DNA from: Candidatus Forterrea multitransposorum CG_2015-17_Forterrea_25_41
GTDB taxonomy: Archaea > Iainarchaeota > Iainarchaeia > Iainarchaeales > CSSED10-239
DNA length: 64,000 nt
Assembly: GCA_009392915.1 (NCBI GenBank)
Contig: CP045477.1
Span: forward strand, 480,001 to 544,000
Direction: 5' to 3'
A program made the position numbers and the translations under genes. Positions 32,529 to 63,172 of the stretch are shown here, piece after piece. Within the stretch, counting starts at the first letter, position 1. Each line of letters starts with the position of its first letter. The notes beneath the pieces were generated by a model. That model searched no databases. It worked only from the letters and a program-made list of their open reading frames with translations, and was not told the origin of the DNA.

Positions 32529-32608
32529 AAAAATTAATCCTAGTTTTTATTTTTTGAAAAATTAGATGAATGCTTGACCATCGCTCTTCAACTAAGTAAA
32601 GAGTTGAG

Positions 32609-32681
32609 TGCCTCGAGCCAGATTTGAACTGGCGGTCTCCAGATTATGAGTCTGGCGCTTTAACCACTAAGCCACCGAGGC
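32609..32681 (-). tRNA. tRNA with CAU anticodon (elongator Met or Ile2-type)
   Basis: Hand-folded. Acceptor GCCTCGG/TCGAGGC, anticodon arm CCAGA-CUCAUAA-UCUGG, T arm GCCAG-TTCAAAT-CTGGC, discriminator A. No initiator features (no G-C triplet in the anticodon stem, G1-C72). Confidence 0.75.
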
Positions 32682-34154: not shown

Positions 34155-34226
34155 AACTAATGATTTATTGTTTGAAAAGTATTAAAAAGTTATGTTTTAA
34201 AAACAGAAGCACCTAAATATATATTA

Positions 34227-34287
34227 GGCGATGATGATATTGAACACCTGCTGATTAAAATATGATGATAGATGGGCGGGCTGAGCC
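34227..34287 (+). ncRNA. Dual-guide C/D box sRNA (2'-O-methylation guide): C AUGAUGA, 13-nt guide, D' CUGA, C' AUGAUGA, 12-nt guide, D CUGA, closed by a GGC/GCC terminal stem
   Basis: Canonical box order and spacing are read directly from the sequence. The D' guide pairs over 9 bp with the 23S A-loop in this window (target U at + coordinate ~39082, the Um2552 equivalent). The D guide matches the universal 16S sequence ACCGCCCGUCA with target C1402. Confidence 0.75.
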
Positions 34288-34530
34288 TTATAAATCTTTT
34301 TTAGGTTTTAAGACTACTTTTTCTTTAATAACAAAATCTTTCTTATTTTCTTCTAAAAAAGATATTCTTTTATTTAAAACTTCAATTTTTGAATTTAAGA
34401 TATCAAATTTAGCATCATTTGATGAAAAATTAAAAATTCTATTTTTTCTTACAATTACATAAGATAGTAAAAGATTTCCTATAAAAAAAATAATTATAAA
34501 AATTATTAAAATAACTGTTAAAGCATCCAT
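34288..34530 (-). CDS. Small protein with one N-terminal TM helix and a short coiled-coil
   Basis: Track ORF with a hydrophobic N-terminus. Function unknown. Confidence 0.3.
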   Translation of the reverse strand: MDALTVILIIFIIIFFIGNLLLSYVIVRKNRIFNFSSNDAKFDILNSKIEVLNKRISFLEENKKDFVIKEKVVLKPKKDL

Positions 34531-38721: not shown

Positions 38722-41692
38722 CTTAAACTTTACTCGAACCATTAGTATTAGAGAGCTTAAATACTCGCCCGAAGGCTTGCATCGTATACTCCTAACCTAT
38801 CAAACCGGTCTTCTTCCGGAGTTCTCGTCTCGCATTTCTGCGAAAATGGCTGTCTCGTTTTAGGGTTCGCTTCGTGCTTAGATGCTTTCAGCACTTATCG
38901 AATACAGCGTAGCTACTGGGCATTGCCTTGTCAGACAACCCACACACCAGAGACTGCGACCCATCGTTCCTCTCGTACTAAACGGATCTTACCTTCAAAC
39001 AACCAACACAACCAATAGATAGGAACCAAACTGTCTCGCAACGTTCTTAACCCAGCTAATGTACGGCTTTAATGAGTGAACACCTCCACCCTTGGCTGCT
39101 TGTGCACAGCCAGGATGCCGTAAGCCGACAGCGAGGTAGCAAACCGCGGGGTCGATGTGAACTCTCACCCGCGACAACCCAGTTACCCCCAGGGTAAGTT
39201 CACTGTCAGACTAGGCCCCCATAAATAGGGACACTAGCGTTCGCTAGACCCAAGTTTCCTTCCAACGTTCCGTGCTTTTAAGAACATTGTTAAGCCTGCT
39301 TTTGGTCTTGTCCTCTACGGCTGATTTCTGACCAGCCTGAGCAGACCTTTGGACGCCCCTGATATCTTTTCAGGGGCGTACCGCCCCAGTCCAACCACCC
39401 GATCAAGTGATGTCCGTCATATAGACGTAAGTTGTATTTTTCCTACTAGATGGTGTTACATTGGCGTCTGACTACTTCCTAGCGAAAGCAGCTAAAGCGA
39501 CTCCCATCTACGCTCTATAGTAAAAACAATACAACAACACCAGACTGTGGTAAACCTCCGTGGGGTCTTATCCTCCCATTGGTTGTCCGTGGCTTATTCA
39601 CCACGCTAAGCAAGTTCACTAAGTTAAAGTTAGGGACAGTGACGATCTCGTTACTTCCTTGGTGCAAGCCGACATTTAATCGGCAAGGTATTACGCTACC
39701 ATGAGAGCCTCAGAGTTAGGCCCGCTCTTTACCAGCGCTTAGACCAGTTGGACCTGGCGTTCACGTACTAGCAGTGAGCAGAAGTCAGTGACTATACACA
39801 CCGTTTCCGGCTAGCAGTCACCTGTGTTTTTGATAAACAGTCGGACCATCTTTGTAATTAAAACTTACAGTTTACTCAACCGTAAGCACCCCTTCTACCT
39901 AAGATACAGGGCTAATTTGCCGAATTCCCTTAACTTTATTCTCTTATTACGCTTTGGCCTATTCAGCCAGGGACACCTTTCTCAGTTCTGGGTACGAACA
40001 ACAATACACTTTATAGTTTCTTTTTCATGGACCCTTGGCCTTGATAAAAGATTTCTCCCATTCACCTCTTTAATCTCCATCTCATTATTATAATTCTCCG
40101 GAGATCTATAAGGTTTAGATATGCAGACAAGCATACTCCACCTTGCCAAAAGTGTTAGAAACTATACTTGCGTTACCACACGTGCATTATCGGTACAGGA
40201 ATATGAACCTGTTTCCCTTTCGTCATTCTTCGAGTTACGAAGAGACTTAGGATCGACTTACCCTTAGCTAAAGATTAGTGCTAAGGAACCCTTGCCCTTT
40301 CAGCGGAAATGATTCTCACATTTCTTTGATGTTACTATCGCGAGGATCCATATCTTTGACAGATCCAGTGGACGTTACCCCCCACCTTCTGCTCTATCAA
40401 AGCACCTACCTACCAGATCACATATTGCATGTGCTCTATGATATCGGCGACAAACTTAGCCCCGTTAATTTTCAAGGCAATCGTCCTAGATTGGTGAGCT
40501 ATTACGCACTCTTTAAAGGATGGCTGCTTCTAAGCCAACCTCCCAATTGTCTTAGGAAAACTACTCTTTTCGAATTTACACTTAGTTTGTACTTAAGGGC
40601 CTTAATCATAGTCTGGGTTTTTTCCCTTTTGGAACAGAGGCTTACCCCCCGCCCCCTACTCTGGACTTCTTAGAAAATAACAGATTCGGAGTTTAACAAG
40701 AAAGGTGGAAATTTCTTCCCAGTACTTTCTAATCAGTAGCTCTACCCCGTTATTCTTCTCCATCCATGCTAACCTCAGAGTTATTTCGATAGGAGCCCGC
40801 TATCACCAGGTTCGATAACCTTATCAGTCCTACTCCCAAGTCATACGAACAGTTAGACTAGTACCGCTTATGACCTCCACCAACCAGGCGGTTGGTTTCA
40901 TCAAGCTCAGGAGTTTATCACCTGGTTTCGGGTCTAGTTTATGTGACTTAAGGCACAGTTAATACCTTTAGCCCTCAGAATCTTGCGGCACATCGGTTTC
41001 CCTACGACACAACGACTTAATCGCTTAGTCTTGCCACACAAACTAACTCCCTCGCCCGTGCTTCGTGACGGACAGTGTGACCCTGATCAAGTAATTTGCG
41101 CTTTAAAAGTTACCTTTTATCACTTATAAATTACTCTCATTCCTTTCAAGCCACACCCGCGCTGTCACCAATTAGTTTCAAGTGCTTTTTACTCCCCGTC
41201 AAGGGATCTTTTCAACATTCCTTCGCAGTACTCGTTCACTATCGGTCTTGTGTTATATTTAGAATTAGCTGTAAATGCCAGCTATTTTCTTACGCGATAT
41301 CCAACGCGCAATACTCTAGGACATCGGAAATCTTCTCAGATATCTTCTGCTTACGGGACTATCACCCTCTATGGTAGATCTTTCCAGATCGCTTCAACTT
41401 AAATATATAAGAAGTAACCAAGCCATACCCCACATGTCTCTTATATTACTATAAGAGATTCGGTTTGTTCTCTTCTGCTTTCGATCAACTCTATTTACAG
41501 AATCACTATTGTTTTCTTTTCCTCCAGGTACTAAGATGCTTCAATTCCCTGGGTTACCCCTTCACCTTATTTTCATAAAGTGAATAATTCAGAAATCTTG
41601 GGATCAAAGGTTGCATGCACCTACCCCAAGCTTATCGCAGCTTGCCACGTCCTTCATCAGTACACAAGCCAAGTTATCCACTAATTGGTTTA
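38722..41692 (-). rRNA. 23S (large-subunit) rRNA, archaeal
   Basis: The reverse complement contains domain V/VI landmarks: GCTGGGTTAAGAACGTTGCGAGACAGTTTGG, the sarcin-ricin loop TAGTACGAGAGGAAC, the A-loop GGAGGTGTTCAC, and the 5' region GATGAAGGACGTG. GC-rich relative to its surroundings. End coordinates are approximate to within ~10 nt. Confidence 0.9.
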
Positions 41693-41748
41693 GCTAAAAT
41701 TTAAGAATCATTTTTTTTTAACCAAATAAACTTGCTTTTGTTATTATT

Positions 41749-42593: not shown

Positions 42594-43793
42594 ATGTTAA
42601 TTGGAATTGTCGGAAAACCTAACGTGGGAAAAACAACTTTTTTTAGAGCTTTAACATTAATGGATGCAGAATCTGCAAATTATCCGTTTACAACAATTGA
42701 CCCTAACAAAGGAGTTGGTTTTGTAAGAAATAAATGTATTGATACTTTTTTTAATACACAATGCAATCCAAGAACAGGATACTGTAAAAACCACATAAGA
42801 TATCTTCCTGTAGATGTTATTGATGTTGCAGGTTTAGTTCCAGGAGCATCTGAAGGAAGAGGACTTGGAAATAAGTTTTTAACTGACCTTAACCAAGCAG
42901 ATGTTTTAATACAAGTAATTGATGCATCAGGTTCCACTGATGAAGAAGGAAAACCTGTTAAAGCTGGAAGTTATAATCCATCTCTTGAAATTAAATTTTT
43001 AGTTGAAGAAATTGAAAAATGGTTATTTGATATTTTTAAAAGAAATTTTATAAAAATTGGAACTGTTCAAAGAGTACAAAAAATTAAAACATTAAGAGTT
43101 TTAGAAGAATATCTCTATTCAACATTAGGATCAAAAGAAGAAGAAATACTTCAAGCACTTAAAAAAAGTAATTTAGTTGATAAAAATATTGCAGAATGGA
43201 CAGATGAAGAACTTTTATTTTTTACAAAAGAGATTAGAAAAGTTTCAAAACCTATAGTTATTGCTGCAAACAAAATAGATCTTCCTTTTGCAAAAGAAAA
43301 TATTGAAAGAATGAAAGAAGAATTTCCTGAACTTACAATTATTCCATGTTCTGCAGAATCAGAATATGCTCTAAAAGCTGCAGAAAAAGCAAAAATTATT
43401 GAATATCTACCAGGAGATTCTACCTTTAAAATATTGAAAGAAGATTTATCTGATAAACAAAAACAAGCTCTTGAATTTATAAAAACAAATATTTTAGAAA
43501 AATATCAAGAAACTGGAGTTCAAAAAATATTAGACACTTCTGTTTTTGAAGTTTTAAAATATATTGCAGTATATCCAGGAGGAACAAAAGGACTAGGGGA
43601 TAAAGATGGAAATATCTTACCTGACTGTTTCTTAATGCCACCTGGCTCAAAAGCAATTGATTTTGCTTTTAAACTGCATACAGACTTTGGTAAAAACTTT
43701 ATTAAAGCAATTGATGTTAAGACAAAAATGCTTCTAGGAAAAGATCATCCTTTAAAAAATAATGATTGTATTGAAATTGTTTCTGGGAAGTGA
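42594..43793 (+). CDS. Obg-family P-loop GTPase (YchF/OLA1-like) with C-terminal TGS domain
   Basis: MLIGIVGKPNVGKTTFF G1 motif, ANYPFTTIDPNKGV, DVAGLV G3 motif, and a C-terminal TGS-like segment. Confidence 0.65.
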   Translation: MLIGIVGKPNVGKTTFFRALTLMDAESANYPFTTIDPNKGVGFVRNKCIDTFFNTQCNPRTGYCKNHIRYLPVDVIDVAGLVPGASEGRGLGNKFLTDLNQADVLIQVIDASGSTDEEGKPVKAGSYNPSLEIKFLVEEIEKWLFDIFKRNFIKIGTVQRVQKIKTLRVLEEYLYSTLGSKEEEILQALKKSNLVDKNIAEWTDEELLFFTKEIRKVSKPIVIAANKIDLPFAKENIERMKEEFPELTIIPCSAESEYALKAAEKAKIIEYLPGDSTFKILKEDLSDKQKQALEFIKTNILEKYQETGVQKILDTSVFEVLKYIAVYPGGTKGLGDKDGNILPDCFLMPPGSKAIDFAFKLHTDFGKNFIKAIDVKTKMLLGKDHPLKNNDCIEIVSGK

Positions 43794-44313: not shown

Positions 44314-45696
44314 TTATTTTAAAATAAGATTAAACTTCTTTTTATTTCTTTTATTAAATAAATAATCTATGTCAGTTTCTTTAATAGTTACTTTTTTAGA
44401 TTTAATAATCTTTATTTTATCTCCATTTTTAAGAAGATGAGACTTATCTTTAATTATTTCTCCATTAATTTCTGCAAAATAAAAATATTTTGCAAAATCA
44501 GAATGAAGAGAAAATGCAAAATCTAGAAGAGTTGATTTTTTTGGGATTACAATTTCTTGATTTGTTTGGGTATAAACACTAATATAATCTATATATGAAA
44601 TATCTTTTGGTTTTTCAATTAATGTTTTATCTTTTAAAATATTAATTAAACGATTATCTTTTTCAGAAAATTCAATATTTTTATAGTGGAAATGAGCAGA
44701 AACACCAAACTCAGCATTGTTATGCATATCTATAGTTCTTATTTGTATTTCTAAAGGAAATCCATCTAAAATAATATTTAAGTGAATAGATTGATAACCA
44801 TTTTCTTTAGGATGCTTAATAAAATCTCTTACCTTTATATCATTATTCTCAATTACATTCAAATTATCTTTAATAAATTTTAAAGCAACATAACATTCTT
44901 TCTTAGAATTATAAATTAACCTTAAAGCATAAATATCTAAAACTTCATCAATATTATTTTTTTCTTTTCTAATAAATATTTTCTGAAATAAACTACCAGG
45001 ACTTTTATATCTATAATTATAAGTTATTGGCTTATGACCTGAATTTTTTAAAAGATTAATAACAGTTTCTTTTAAAGAAGTAAGTTTTTCTAAAGGATAT
45101 CTTTTTTTAAGTTCAGCATAATTTTTATTAAAACTATCTTTATATTTTAATTTCATTAGTTGAGTTAAAAAATCTTCTTTAAAATTTTGCATACCAAGTT
45201 GATAAGCTAAAGGAAAAATTGCAATTTCAATAATATCTAAAAATCTTTTTTTAAATTCAGGATCTTTTATTTTAGGAAAATAATCTAAAATAACTAAAGC
45301 TTCACCAAAAGTAATAATAATTGCTTCAATTTTAAAAAAAGACTGAACAATCATATTTTTAATTTTTATAGGAGAAATAGAAGGATTATTTATTAGATTA
45401 TAAAAATTAATAAAATAAATATCTTTAGATATCTTTCTAATAATTTTTACAAAACCCTTTTCTTTAATATTTAAATTATATTTATAAGGATTATAAAGAA
45501 CAGATGAAATTATAATATTTTCATCATAAACATTTAATCTTTTAGCAATAGCTAGAGAATATTCTACTAAAGATATATTCTTAAAAACATATTTATCAGA
45601 ATAATTATCTATAATTAAATTATATGATTTTTCAATATTTGAAGTATAATCTTTAATTAATTCTTTATATTCTTTTACAAATTTATTTTTAATCAT
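44314..45696 (-). CDS. RelA/SpoT-homologue (RSH) protein: degenerate N-terminal HD-like region, intact (p)ppGpp-synthetase motif, C-terminal TGS domain
   Basis: DIYALRLI…ECYVALKFI…DFIKHPKENGYQSIHLNI…EIQIRTIDMHNNAEFGVSAHFHYK matches the RSH synthetase signature (DYIA.PK.NGYQSLHT…EVQIRT.eMH..AE.GVAAHW.YK). IAIFPLAYQLGMQNFKEDF matches the preceding helix. The HD dyad is replaced by YN. C-terminal TGS: LLDFAFSLHSDFAKYF…NGDKIKII. Confidence 0.6.
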   Translation of the reverse strand: MIKNKFVKEYKELIKDYTSNIEKSYNLIIDNYSDKYVFKNISLVEYSLAIAKRLNVYDENIIISSVLYNPYKYNLNIKEKGFVKIIRKISKDIYFINFYNLINNPSISPIKIKNMIVQSFFKIEAIIITFGEALVILDYFPKIKDPEFKKRFLDIIEIAIFPLAYQLGMQNFKEDFLTQLMKLKYKDSFNKNYAELKKRYPLEKLTSLKETVINLLKNSGHKPITYNYRYKSPGSLFQKIFIRKEKNNIDEVLDIYALRLIYNSKKECYVALKFIKDNLNVIENNDIKVRDFIKHPKENGYQSIHLNIILDGFPLEIQIRTIDMHNNAEFGVSAHFHYKNIEFSEKDNRLINILKDKTLIEKPKDISYIDYISVYTQTNQEIVIPKKSTLLDFAFSLHSDFAKYFYFAEINGEIIKDKSHLLKNGDKIKIIKSKKVTIKETDIDYLFNKRNKKKFNLILK

Positions 45697-50385: not shown

Positions 50386-52980
50386 TTAAGAAATTATTCT
50401 TATATTAATTTCTGATTCTTGGTTTTCTAATATTTGATGAACAGTTGCATTGATATCAGTTGTTTGTGCTTTAATAATACCAACATCAGTTAAGATAGAA
50501 TCAATGTTTGTCCTAACCTCACCACTTAAAAGATTCCATGTATTTAAAGTAGTTTGATTAATTTCTTCTAACTTTTGTGCTTGTGTTTGATCCATTATTT
50601 CAATAGCTGTTTTAATATTATAAACTTCTTGACATAATGGGCTGTTGTTAGTATCTTCATTACCACAAAAGTTTTCAACTAATGCAAGATTATCATCAAC
50701 TGATGAAAATCTGTTTCTAATTTCTCCCATGTCTTCTTGATTAATTGAATTTGAAACTAACCAATTAGTATCTTGCTTAATTGATGTTAATTGATTTGTT
50801 AAATCTTCAAGCATTAAATCAAGTTGAACATTAATATTGTTTACAACTAAATCTGTCATTAAACTTGAAAGAGAATCATTTACATCAATTATCTGTGTCT
50901 GTAATGTTTGACCTGTTGAAACAACAGTTCCATTTACAGAAATCTCTAAATTATCAAGTCTTGTTGAAAGGAAATCATTTGAATCTGAAAACTTTTGTGC
51001 AATCAATGCATTTGTATAATTAAATTGATTTGTAATTTCAGTAGATAAATTAACATTAACAGCATTTAAAAGATCTGTTAAAGAAGTTGAAACATTTGTT
51101 AAATTTGTATTTATTTCTTCACCAGTTTCTGTAACAGTTGCAGTTAATGATAAATTTACATTATCAAGTTGACTAGATAATTCTGCAAATCTTAAATCAA
51201 TCTTATCTGAAAGATCAGTATTAACTGTGTTTAAAAGATTTGAAAGAGTTGTTGTTGAAAGAGAAATATTTGTATTTATCTCTTCACCTGTCTCTTCTAA
51301 ATTTGCATTTAAACTTAAATTAACATTTGTAAGTTGATCAGATAATTGATTAAATCTTAAATCAATCTTATCTGAAAGATCTGTATTAACTGTGTTTAAA
51401 AGATTTGAAAGAGTAGTTGTTGAAAGAGAAATATTTGTATTAATCTCTTCTCCAGTCTCATCTAAATTTGCATTTAAACTTAAACTTACATTTGTAAGTT
51501 GATTAGATAATTCTGTAAACTTTAAATCAATCTTATCTGAAAGATCTGTATTAACTGTATTTAAAAGACCAGTTAAAGAAGTTGAAACATTTGTTAAATT
51601 TGTATTTATTTCTTCACCAGTTTCTTCTAAATTTGCAGTTAAACTTAAATTTACATTTTCTAAATTATTTTGAGAAGTATTAAAATCTTCTTCTAATTGA
51701 TTTAATAAATTATTATTTACTGAATTTAATAAATCTAAAATATTTGTTGTAGAAGTATTAATATTTGTATTAATCTCTTCTCCTGTAGTTGTAACTGTAC
51801 CTGTTAAATTTAAACTAACATCATTTAAATTTGCAGTTAAAGAATTATAATCAAATTCCATTTGATCTAAAAGACCAGAATTAACTGAATTTAAAAGATT
51901 AGTTAAATTTGTGTTTGTAGTATCAATATTTGTATTTATTTCTTCGCCTGTTAAAAGAACAGTTCCTGTTAAATTTAAACTAACATCATTTAAATTTTCA
52001 TTTAATGAATTTAAATCAGAATCCATTTGATCTAAAAGACCAGAATTAACTGAATTTAAAAGATTAGTTAAATTTGTGTTAGTTGCATCAATATTTGTAT
52101 TAATTTCTTCACCAGTAGATGCAATTGTTCCAGTTAAATTTAAATTTACATTATTTAAATTTGCATTTAAAGAATCAAAATTTGTATCCATTTGTTCTAA
52201 AATACCAGAATTAACATTTGATAAAAGATTTTCTAAATTTGTATTAACATTTGTTAAACTTGTTTGAATTTCTTCACCAGTTGATGAAATTGTACCTGTT
52301 AAAGAAAGATCAACACCTGAAAGATCAGTTTGTAATGTTACAATTCCTTCTTGTAATTCATTTGCAAGAGTTCCATTAACATCTGCAAGTAAATCATTTA
52401 AAGAAGTATTCATGTTTGTTAAATTTGTTGTAATATATTCTCCAGTTTCAGAAATTTGACCAGCTACAGAAACATTAACATCTGCAAGTCTTAAATCTAA
52501 ATTATCTGATTTTTCGGTTAAAACACTTATTTGTTCAAGTGCTGGATTTAAGTGAAAAGATTGTGAACTTTTTACAATTGTTGCACCACTTCTACAAGTT
52601 ACTTCTTGTTCATAAGTTCCTAAAGGAGCATCTCCTAAATAATCTGTTCTATACCAGTTTCCTGCAATATTTGATTCAGACATTGGCTGATCATCAACAA
52701 ATACAGATTTGTCTGGATGCAGTATAGTTACTCTACATTCATCTATTGGATAAGGATTACCTTTATAGTCTGATAATCTAACAATAGTTGAACCATAATC
52801 TTCTCTCCAGTATTCTGTGTGAGAAACCCATTGGAAAGAAATTTCATCTTCAACAACAGTTTTTCCACTAACATAAGCAGTTGCTAAAAAGGCAACAACA
52901 ATTAATAAAACACCTAAAATACTTAATTTTAAGTATTTATTTCTTTTTTTCTTATCTGTCATAATTACTCTTAACCTCAT
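50386..52980 (-). CDS. Large membrane-anchored surface protein: N-terminal TM helix, globular domain, then ~8-9 tandem 54-aa Asn/Thr/Leu-rich repeats (coiled-coil/fibrous)
   Basis: Repeat units such as NANLEETGEEINTNISLSTTTLSNLLNTVNTDLSDKIDLRFNQLSDQLTNVNLSL. The underlying DNA units recur at a 162-nt period, for example at 51210 and 51372. Confidence 0.5.
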   Translation of the reverse strand: MRLRVIMTDKKKRNKYLKLSILGVLLIVVAFLATAYVSGKTVVEDEISFQWVSHTEYWREDYGSTIVRLSDYKGNPYPIDECRVTILHPDKSVFVDDQPMSESNIAGNWYRTDYLGDAPLGTYEQEVTCRSGATIVKSSQSFHLNPALEQISVLTEKSDNLDLRLADVNVSVAGQISETGEYITTNLTNMNTSLNDLLADVNGTLANELQEGIVTLQTDLSGVDLSLTGTISSTGEEIQTSLTNVNTNLENLLSNVNSGILEQMDTNFDSLNANLNNVNLNLTGTIASTGEEINTNIDATNTNLTNLLNSVNSGLLDQMDSDLNSLNENLNDVSLNLTGTVLLTGEEINTNIDTTNTNLTNLLNSVNSGLLDQMEFDYNSLTANLNDVSLNLTGTVTTTGEEINTNINTSTTNILDLLNSVNNNLLNQLEEDFNTSQNNLENVNLSLTANLEETGEEINTNLTNVSTSLTGLLNTVNTDLSDKIDLKFTELSNQLTNVSLSLNANLDETGEEINTNISLSTTTLSNLLNTVNTDLSDKIDLRFNQLSDQLTNVNLSLNANLEETGEEINTNISLSTTTLSNLLNTVNTDLSDKIDLRFAELSSQLDNVNLSLTATVTETGEEINTNLTNVSTSLTDLLNAVNVNLSTEITNQFNYTNALIAQKFSDSNDFLSTRLDNLEISVNGTVVSTGQTLQTQIIDVNDSLSSLMTDLVVNNINVQLDLMLEDLTNQLTSIKQDTNWLVSNSINQEDMGEIRNRFSSVDDNLALVENFCGNEDTNNSPLCQEVYNIKTAIEIMDQTQAQKLEEINQTTLNTWNLLSGEVRTNIDSILTDVGIIKAQTTDINATVHQILENQESEINIRIIS
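50890..52330 (-). repeat. Coding tandem repeat array, 162-nt unit (54 aa), ~8-9 copies with graded divergence; central copies nearly identical
   Basis: Long near-identical stretches (…cttatctgaaagatctgtattaactgtgtttaaaagatttgaaagagt…) recur at a 162-nt period. Confidence 0.7.
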
Positions 52981-61990: not shown

Positions 61991-63172
61991 TCACCAATTA
62001 TTCACAATTTCTTCAATATTTTTATTCATACTAAAAGGTTTATTTACTCTTGCATTCTTTTTAAGATAAAATAATGTGCCTTTTGATAAACCTTTATTCT
62101 TCCAATCAACATAAGATATATTTAATATCTTATTTCTAATTTCTTCTGTATCTTTCCTTTCTAGTTTATGTTTAGGTTTTGTAAAATCTATGTTTTTCGA
62201 TTTTTTCTTTAAAAAGTTAGATAGTTCTCTTGTTTTTAATAATATTAAATAATGAAAGTTTACTTTATCTCCTTTATATAATATCTTATGATTAAAATGT
62301 TTATTAATACTTTCTAAAACCTTTTTAGCTCCAGAAGATCTTAACCTTAAATTATAGTTTTCTGTTCTTATAAAATCCTTATCATTAATCAAATTATTCT
62401 CAATTAAATCTAAAACTGCAAGATCAACTAAATATCTAAATGGTTCTTGCATATCATAAGCTAAACTATTCTTACCATTTTGCTTTTCATGTAAAAAACC
62501 TATGTGTCTATCAAGACCAATAGAATTTATTGATTTTAAAATCTCTGCTTCTAATATAGCATATCCATAATTAAGCATACAATTAAATTGATCTCCAGTA
62601 CCTTTAGCTTCTTTCTTATATTCTCTACCTTCAAATTCATATTTTTTAGGTATAATCTTAATAAATTGTTTCCAATAATGAGAAGCAATTCTACCTTCTG
62701 ATAATAAAATATCTTGAATTGTATTTGATTTCTTAAATAATTCTAGCTCTTTACTAAAATTATTATCAATTACTGAATATCTTTCTTTTAGATAATCTAA
62801 AACTAGTTGTTGTTTTTCAAATTTAGCTTCAACAAACTTTTTAGCTAAATTTAATCTTTGAATTGAATAATCATAAGCTTTATATTGTTCAAACTTAGCT
62901 TCTGAACCTATATTCTTATATGGTAACATACTAGTAAGTAGTTGTCCATCCCAATTTAGAAAGCTAACTTGAACATAGTGTTTCATTAACCATCTAATAG
63001 CATCTAAAGTTAATTCTCCCGACCTACCATATATTACTATATGATCAATATTCATTTTTCTTGGAGAGTATACTAATGTTTCATTAACTAAATCAGTTTG
63101 ATGTTTAATTATTAGTTTTGCTTTATCTACTCTTAGGTTAATTCCATAACCATCTAATAACAATATTTTCAT
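61991..63172 (-). CDS. cas1: Cas1-family integrase, stand-alone (casposase-like: Cas1 core plus ~60-aa C-terminal HTH-like extension)
   Basis: Conserved Cas1 motifs: N-terminal MKILLLDGYGINLRVD, LLSEGRIASHYW (catalytic Glu), and NCMLNYGYAILEAEI…GLDRHIGFLHEKQNGKNSLAYDMQEPFRYLVD (His and Asp-x-x-Glu cluster). C-terminal LSKGTLFYLKKNARVNKP is HTH-like. 393 aa versus ~300-330 for CRISPR Cas1. Confidence 0.75.
   Translation of the reverse strand: MKILLLDGYGINLRVDKAKLIIKHQTDLVNETLVYSPRKMNIDHIVIYGRSGELTLDAIRWLMKHYVQVSFLNWDGQLLTSMLPYKNIGSEAKFEQYKAYDYSIQRLNLAKKFVEAKFEKQQLVLDYLKERYSVIDNNFSKELELFKKSNTIQDILLSEGRIASHYWKQFIKIIPKKYEFEGREYKKEAKGTGDQFNCMLNYGYAILEAEILKSINSIGLDRHIGFLHEKQNGKNSLAYDMQEPFRYLVDLAVLDLIENNLINDKDFIRTENYNLRLRSSGAKKVLESINKHFNHKILYKGDKVNFHYLILLKTRELSNFLKKKSKNIDFTKPKHKLERKDTEEIRNKILNISYVDWKNKGLSKGTLFYLKKNARVNKPFSMNKNIEEIVNNW

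Follow-up and report, generated by a model that had tools for sequence, protein, structure and literature searches.

An unannotated dual-guide box C/D sRNA predicted to target 23S U2552 and 16S C1402 in an Iainarchaeota-like DPANN archaeon

The 64,000-nt stretch of Candidatus Forterrea multitransposorum DNA analysed here (contig CP045477.1, positions 480,001 to 544,000; hereafter the window) carries at positions 34227-34287 of its plus strand an unannotated element with the complete anatomy of an archaeal box C/D small RNA (sRNA) and with two guides, one complementary to the A-loop of 23S rRNA and the other to a universal segment of 16S rRNA. The best explanation for the whole is an independently transcribed dual-guide C/D sRNA that would direct 2'-O-methylation of the equivalents of U2552 (Um2552) and C1402 (Cm1402), to which, judging from sequence comparison, we give a probability of about 0.88. 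That the element is a real feature and a functional dual-guide C/D sRNA is very probable, a functional RNA being strongly supported by the comparative evidence, while we are somewhat less certain that the two predicted methylations take place in vivo. The advance is modest and consists of an unannotated member of this RNA class in a mesophilic, AT-rich DPANN archaeon, with the U2552 and C1402 guides combined on one RNA.

The element comprises 61 nt in the order GGCG-ATGATGA-TATTGAACACCTG-CTGA-TTAAAAT-ATGATGA-TAGATGGGCGGG-CTGA-GCC. Its C box AUGAUGA (34231-34237), which fits the RUGAUGA consensus (PMC7229835), is followed on the same strand by the 13-nt D' guide UAUUGAACACCUG (34238-34250), the D' box CUGA (34251-34254), the D'/C' linker UUAAAAU (34255-34261), which would form the loop of an internal kink-loop (k-loop), the C' box AUGAUGA (34262-34268), the 12-nt D guide UAGAUGGGCGGG (34269-34280) and the D box CUGA (34281-34284). 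Depending on how the C' box is delimited, the linker counts 7 nt to the full RUGAUGA or 8 nt to UGAUGA. The two ends are complementary and make up a terminal stem, (A)GGC at 34226-34229 with GCC(U) at 34285-34288, whose core GGC (34227-34229)/GCC (34285-34287) amounts to 3 bp and reaches 4 bp when A34226-U34288 is counted; G34230, a G or an A in relatives, takes the place of the unpaired first bulge nucleotide of the kink-turn (k-turn). The element therefore resembles characterised archaeal box C/D sRNAs in its C and D boxes, its terminal stem and its D' and C' boxes with a short linker in between; in its size (about 60 nt expected, 61 found) and spacers (about 12 nt expected, 12 for D and 13 for D'); and in guides that pair over some 8-10 bp from position 2 onwards with the target nucleotide at N+5, i.e. 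opposite guide position 5, as assessed for the D guide against the universal 16S sequence only. An earlier interpretation made from the letters of this DNA alone (the sequence-only reading) had already described these boxes, the 12-13-nt guides, the 7-nt linker and the terminal stem, and the sequence at these positions is identical to the one it quoted.

Such an arrangement does not readily arise by chance. In a regular-expression scan of both strands, the four-box geometry was present at this single site in the 64-kb window, and it appeared in none of 300 dinucleotide-preserving shuffles, with either strict or relaxed boxes. Besides, the guides are conspicuously rich in G+C for a window of ~23% G+C. 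The minimum free energy (MFE) fold joins the two guides, the 3' part of D' lying opposite the D guide (34247-34252 with 34275-34280 on the plus strand, ~6 bp, CCUGCU/GGCGGG); this fold was not significant (z = -1.2) and is uninformative for a protein-bound k-turn RNA, and its guide-guide pairing is beyond the reach of covariation because both guides are invariant.

As for the targets, positions 2-10 of the D' guide, counted from the D' box, read UGAACACCU, and their complement AGGTGTTCA occurs once in the window outside the guide itself, at 39077-39085 on the minus strand. This is the segment AGGUGUUCA in the A-loop (helix 92) of the window's 23S rRNA, embedded in the context CCAAGGGU-GGAGGUGUUCACUC-AUUAAAG, and it is the best anchored match of the D' guide on that rRNA, with 9 Watson-Crick bp. 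A global alignment with the E. coli 23S sequence, whose record has a one-base numbering offset that was checked against the sarcin-ricin loop, identified the nucleotide opposite guide position 5, window position 39082, as the equivalent of U2552, where the predicted Um would lie; the proposal of the sequence-only reading that the D' guide forms 9 bp with the window's 23S and addresses this very uridine is thereby confirmed. Helix 92 at 39074-39087 (minus strand) reads GGAGGUGUUCACUC, and its loop-closing positions 2551 and 2557, a C-G pair in E. coli and most archaea, are G and A. Four relatives (loci L077, L140, L145 and L148), those with fetched DNA extending to this part of the 23S gene, have an identical A-loop.

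The D guide pairs through its positions 2-10 with the universal 16S sequence CCGCCCGUC (1399-1407), again over 9 bp, of which only one, U8 of the guide opposite G1405, is a G-U wobble, and N+5 falls on C1402. Against this universal segment, the earlier assignment thus held, including its single G-U pair. In both duplexes guide position 1 is mismatched and 9 bp are formed, which fits the known requirements of C/D ribonucleoproteins (RNPs), where spacer position 1 binds no substrate and recognition is limited to at most 10 bp (PMC7229835). No better-than-chance site was found for the D guide on the 23S rRNA or on the three tRNAs of the window. Complementarity alone being weak, the weight of the argument comes from which sites are matched and from their conservation. 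In this respect, the sequence-only reading had called the two targets the most conserved rRNA 2'-O-methylation sites; both are indeed known 2'-O-methylated nucleotides (Nm), yet the superlative slightly overstates the case, as Gm2251 is at least as conserved. Haloarchaeal rRNA, for instance, carries the equivalents of Um2552 and Gm2251, and all three Nm sites detected there lie in 23S rRNA (PMC11542601).

The comparative evidence comes from two scans. Using the D-guide half of the RNA as the pattern, we scanned one genome per prokaryotic species and obtained at least 120 loci; among the matches listed, some 50 or more were archaeal sRNAs that have a proper, correctly spaced C box, the bacterial matches had no C box, and at least six species-representative genomes, two of them named Candidatus Iainarchaeum, also had the D' guide of the window. 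A metagenome scan with the dual-guide pattern, in which the two guide positions facing variable A-loop nucleotides were left free, added 35 further contigs, all of them with GAACACCUG. Altogether, Iainarchaeota-like DPANN genomes and metagenomes supply at least 42 instances of the dual-guide RNA, with at least 28 different sequences, and the combination of U2552 and C1402 guides was confined, among the matches listed, to the clade with the AGGUGUUCA A-loop.

In an alignment of the 28 distinct homologues, the nucleotides that are held constant are those expected to matter for function. The C box, the D' and D boxes and the UGAUGA of the C' box are invariant (the first base of the C' box is A or G), as are the nine pairing nucleotides of the D' guide together with its position 1, and the D guide core AUGGGCGG is found in 28/28. 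Variation is seen in the D' spacer only at its 5' end, next to the C box, and further in the flanks and in the linker, which differs in sequence and in length (4-10 nt to UGAUGA, 3-9 nt to the full RUGAUGA). The terminal stem changes by compensation, its two strands covarying through GGC/GCC, AGC/GCU, CAC/GUG and AAGACA/UGUCUU, with double changes in all four inner pairs; the covariation score of 0.885, versus 0.23 in shuffles, was reached in 0/500 of them and dropped to at most 0.15 when the partner strand was slid.

The genomic neighbourhood is preserved as well. In nearly all loci the sRNA stands between a divergent rpiA gene and a convergent gene for an 80-aa membrane protein, followed by a gene for a 252-aa protein, and its functional nucleotides stay fixed while the identity of the rpiA protein falls to ~50% among relatives. 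The 80-aa open reading frame (ORF; 34288-34530, minus strand) is conserved as a protein in ~35 related loci, always convergent to the sRNA, and has a hydrophobic N-terminus, a weak PspB-like Pfam match and a stop codon that abuts the 3' end of the sRNA. No second C/D sRNA was found when 355 kb of related loci were scanned with relaxed four-box criteria; this hardly constrains the number of sRNAs, since this DNA is mostly the same locus in different genomes.

An archaeal TATA box usually lies some 28 nt from the transcription start, and the TATA-like element TTTTAAAAA (34194-34202, plus strand) precedes the first stem nucleotide by ~28 nt. In 31/33 distinct upstream regions, against a background of 11%, the motif TT[TA]A[TA]A begins between 38 and 31 nt before the C box. 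Its distance to the divergent rpiA start ranges from 58 to 122 nt across loci and reaches 1.7 kb in locus L027; this variability, set against the fixed distance to the sRNA, assigns the box to the sRNA, for which it would serve as a putative promoter. Downstream, an oligo-T run (TTTTTT, 34300-34305, plus strand) begins 13 nt past the stem and is possibly an archaeal termination signal, although the evidence is weak: five or more consecutive T within 40 nt downstream occur in 25/33 homologues, with ~40% expected in such AT-rich DNA.

By analogy with characterised archaeal C/D RNPs, we propose that a ~61-nt RNA is transcribed on its own in this AT-rich, Iainarchaeota-like DPANN archaeon and that L7Ae would bind its terminal C/D k-turn and its internal C'/D' k-loop, with a Nop5 dimer bridging both motifs and placing two copies of fibrillarin. 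Each spacer would then pair with its substrate over no more than 10 bp, the nucleotide opposite position 5 becoming 2'-O-methylated (PMC7229835). Through its D' guide the RNP may thus capture 23S nucleotides 2549-2557 and let fibrillarin methylate U2552 in the A-loop, and through its D guide it may capture 16S nucleotides 1399-1407, which would place the methyl group on C1402 in the P-site decoding centre. Under this model the 16S rRNA of the source organism would read ACCGCCCGUCA at the equivalent of 1398-1408. The presence of the three proteins is assumed in view of their standing as standard, near-universal, single-copy archaeal marker genes (PMC9258230).

Several results weigh against this account. 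The D' spacer measures 13-15 nt in the family versus the canonical 12; the extra bases sit at its 5' end, a region in which looped-out bases are tolerated (PMC7229835). A Pfam search of the ~50 window ORFs of at least 90 aa did not find fibrillarin, Nop5 or L7Ae, nor were these found in 10-kb extensions past each window edge, which were reached through contigs identical to the window at the protein level (GCA_009993835.1, JAACSP010000001.1, 547 kb; and JGI Ga0100381_1000002, 664 kb), and approximate queries for Methanocaldococcus jannaschii fibrillarin and L7Ae gave no tblastn match in the 1.26 Mb of fetched loci. With respect to the targets, 20% of shuffled D' guides reach nine or more anchored pairs somewhere on the 3-kb 23S rRNA, and the duplexes are short, at 9 bp and, for the D guide of one subfamily, 8 bp; in vitro, in assays at 50-70 °C, an 8-bp substrate was left unmodified (PMC7229835). 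The 16S gene of the source genome was found neither in the window nor in any of the 160 fetched loci, so that the case for the D-guide target depends on 16S 1399-1407 being conserved near-universally. Finally, Rfam at its gathering thresholds gave no match at 34227-34287. A permissive search aligned many archaeal and eukaryotic C/D families full-length on exactly these positions, each of them below its gathering score; the best were snoPyro_CD (RF00095, 28.8 bits against a gathering score of 45) and sR1 (RF01152, 27.8 against 45), and sR2 (RF01139) scored 26.3 against 42. These and other archaeal C/D families share the box architecture and differ in their guides, and generic matches below threshold are what would be expected of an RNA whose guides are unrelated to the curated families; by the same token, the sRNA falls outside curated Rfam C/D membership.

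The alternative that departs least from the dual-guide explanation would accept a genuine C/D sRNA and deny one or both methylations in vivo, for example if an RlmE/FtsJ-type enzyme made Um2552 and the RNA acted mainly as a chaperone or assembly factor. There is precedent for its parts, as the Um at the haloarchaeal U2552 equivalent is thought to be made by an RlmE homologue and in yeast Spb1 and snR52 act redundantly on the site (PMC11542601), chaperone roles have been proposed for archaeal sRNAs (PMC5389701), and duplexes of 8-9 bp are short in the light of the in vitro result (PMC7229835). Yet each guide places a known methylated nucleotide exactly at N+5, without change over 28 homologues, and a pure binding role would tolerate register shifts and is disfavoured for this reason. 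Nor could the RNA join two regions of one rRNA during folding, its targets lying on two different rRNAs, and the Pfam search found no FtsJ-type domain in the window, which is a small part of the genome. We consider this alternative unlikely.

Even less probable, to the point of being very unlikely, is a chance assembly of AT-rich motifs, or a protein-binding k-turn that regulates neighbouring genes and has no guide function. UGAUGA-like words are common in a genome of ~23% G+C, k-turns in mRNAs are among the known binding sites of L7Ae (PMC5539422), and the 23S guide match is by itself not significant. Against this stand the 0/300 shuffles with a four-box arrangement, the invariance of the G+C-rich guides among relatives whose proteins are only ~50% identical, the match of both guides to known universal Nm sites in exact register and the lack of a plus-strand gene downstream that could be regulated. 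There is, in addition, an ATG-initiated ORF of 66 codons at 34262-34462 (plus strand), which could be taken for a real gene with the box motifs coinciding with its start. The same ATG in relatives opens a frame that closes after 7-31 codons, or is replaced by GTG, and closure comes after 14 codons even in a relative with flanking proteins ~95% identical; moreover, the body of the ORF runs antisense to the conserved 80-aa gene, and the conservation is at the nucleotide level, extends no further than the 3' end of the stem and comes with stem covariation. Coding was therefore rejected, with hardly any probability left for it, and the ORF (MMIDGRAEPY…) is best viewed as an antisense shadow of the 80-aa gene that starts at the ATG of the C' box, in agreement with the sequence-only reading, which had listed it as an artefact.

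The dual-guide sRNA has partial counterparts among known guides. Guides to the U2552 equivalent were predicted in five of the seven archaea analysed by Dennis et al. (PMC4644070). Among the closest is sR10 of Nanoarchaeum equitans, likewise a DPANN archaeon, whose D' guide AGUGAACACCCU-CUGA faces the A-loop GGGGGUGUUCACCC with the U2552 equivalent at N+5 and shares the core GAACACC with the D' guide of the window (PMC4644070). The N. equitans A-loop has the same G2551/A2557 variant, and the guides of both organisms match it. In contrast to the window sRNA, the D guide of sR10, AAAAUCCACACA, has its assigned target at a second site within domain V of 23S rRNA and not in 16S rRNA, and N. equitans is a hyperthermophile with 26 sRNAs, unlike the mesophilic lineage studied here. 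Cm1402 has been detected in N. equitans, and no guide for it was found (PMC5389701).

For the D guide, related sequences are present in sR11 of Ignicoccus hospitalis (CCGAUGGGCGGA-CUGA), sR114 of Methanopyrus kandleri (GUGAUGGGCGGA-CCGA) and sR106 of Methanococcus maripaludis (AAGAUGGGCGAG-CUGA), all with the core GAUGGGCG(G) in the same register before the D or D' box. The first of these was proposed as the Cm1402 guide of I. hospitalis (PMC5389701), where methylation at 1402 is below 50%. In both sR11 and sR114, the C1402-type guide is in the D' position and the partner guide differs from that of the window sRNA. In published rRNA alignments, no label was found for M. maripaludis sR106, and the sole label of M. 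kandleri sR114 lies near 16S position 900.

Beyond the archaea, yeast snR70 guides 18S Cm1639 (human Cm1703), the equivalent of Cm1402 (PMC2794176), and yeast snR52 guides 25S Um2921, the equivalent of Um2552 (PMC11542601), which is also made by Spb1. Both yeast RNAs work as box C/D guides with fibrillarin and the N+5 rule, as predicted here, but the two specificities are split between two RNAs, which are longer, have degenerate C'/D' boxes and act with Nop56, Nop58 and Snu13; homology to the window sRNA is neither shown nor expected beyond the boxes and the guide sequence imposed by the target. In E. coli, the same two methylations are introduced by RsmI (Cm1402) and RlmE/FtsJ (Um2552) (PMC11542601, PMC11551388), i.e. 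by stand-alone proteins without a guide RNA.

The C1402 guide extends well beyond the dual-guide clade. Among the matches listed (loci L004-L113), some 50 or more archaeal C/D sRNAs have a 12-nt D guide ending in GAUGGGCGGN-CUGA, combined with lineage-specific D' guides. They stem from Thermoplasmata, Methanofastidiosa/'Thermococci', DHVE2/Aciduliprofundum, Aenigmatarchaeota, Undinarchaeales and Nanobdellati (examples are L005:4117-4147, L004, L029, L008, L021, L036 and L061), keep the same register before the D box and have a proper C box upstream, some of them placing a pairing C opposite G1405 instead of U. Of the partner D' guides among these matches, AACCGACAGCGU corresponds to 23S U2504 and CUAUCUAAUCCG matches 16S GGAUUAGAUA. 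It is tempting, if speculative and on balance doubtful, to see in the window sRNA one member of a widespread and largely unrecognised archaeal lineage anchored on an ancient C1402 guide, GAUGGGCGG, whose partner guide has been swapped, towards U2552 in Iainarchaeota-like DPANN archaea and towards U2504 in Methanofastidiosa, and which may in genome-reduced mesophilic DPANN archaea be one of few C/D sRNAs or even the only one. If true, a minimal guide set would install universal methylations of the decoding centre and the peptidyl-transferase centre from a single RNP, and the lineage could serve as a template for seeking the missing Cm1402 guide of N. equitans.

Irrespective of such a history, the dual-guide explanation makes a sharp prediction: a single 61-nt RNA would be required both for Um in the A-loop and for Cm at the equivalent of 16S position 1402. 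It would add an unannotated functional RNA gene to an Iainarchaeota-like DPANN genome, and a single minimal archaeal guide with both specificities would illustrate that the machinery behind ribosome modifications can change while the modifications themselves are conserved. On the practical side, the 28 homologues and the at least ~50 C1402-guide sRNAs could seed a covariance model for the annotation of archaeal metagenome-assembled genomes, and the same set may help to explain archaeal Cm1402, including in N. equitans, where its guide was not found.

The gene content of the window is that of an archaeon, with a 23S rRNA gene (38722-41705, minus strand), three tRNAs, NMD3, an archaeal prepilin peptidase and a beta-CASP nuclease. 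The 23S gene has ~38% G+C and stands alone; a 16S or 5S gene was found neither in the 64 kb nor in the 10-kb extensions on either side, which suggests that the rRNA genes are unlinked. An Rfam match to 'Plastid-ycf2 5'UTR' at 32608-32681 (plus strand), exactly at the gathering score, was dismissed as a false positive, being the antisense of a tRNA-Met(CAT) on the minus strand. Near the end of the window, a Cas1 gene (61991-63172, minus strand, Pfam E-value 2e-62) has neighbours without Pfam matches, both in the window and in the identical contig (L161), and no CRISPR array was found in the window with Tandem Repeats Finder; this Cas1 may be a solo Cas1 or belong to a casposon-like element. A 460-aa protein (44314-45696, minus strand), whose gene adjoins that of an Obg-like GTPase (42594-43793, plus strand), combines RelA/SpoT (alarmone synthetase) and TGS domains, a combination that seems unusual for an archaeon. 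Lastly, an 864-aa ORF (50386-52980, minus strand) contains long tandem repeats (51099-52303; periods of 165 and 330 nt) and has sub-threshold matches to apolipoprotein-like helical repeats.

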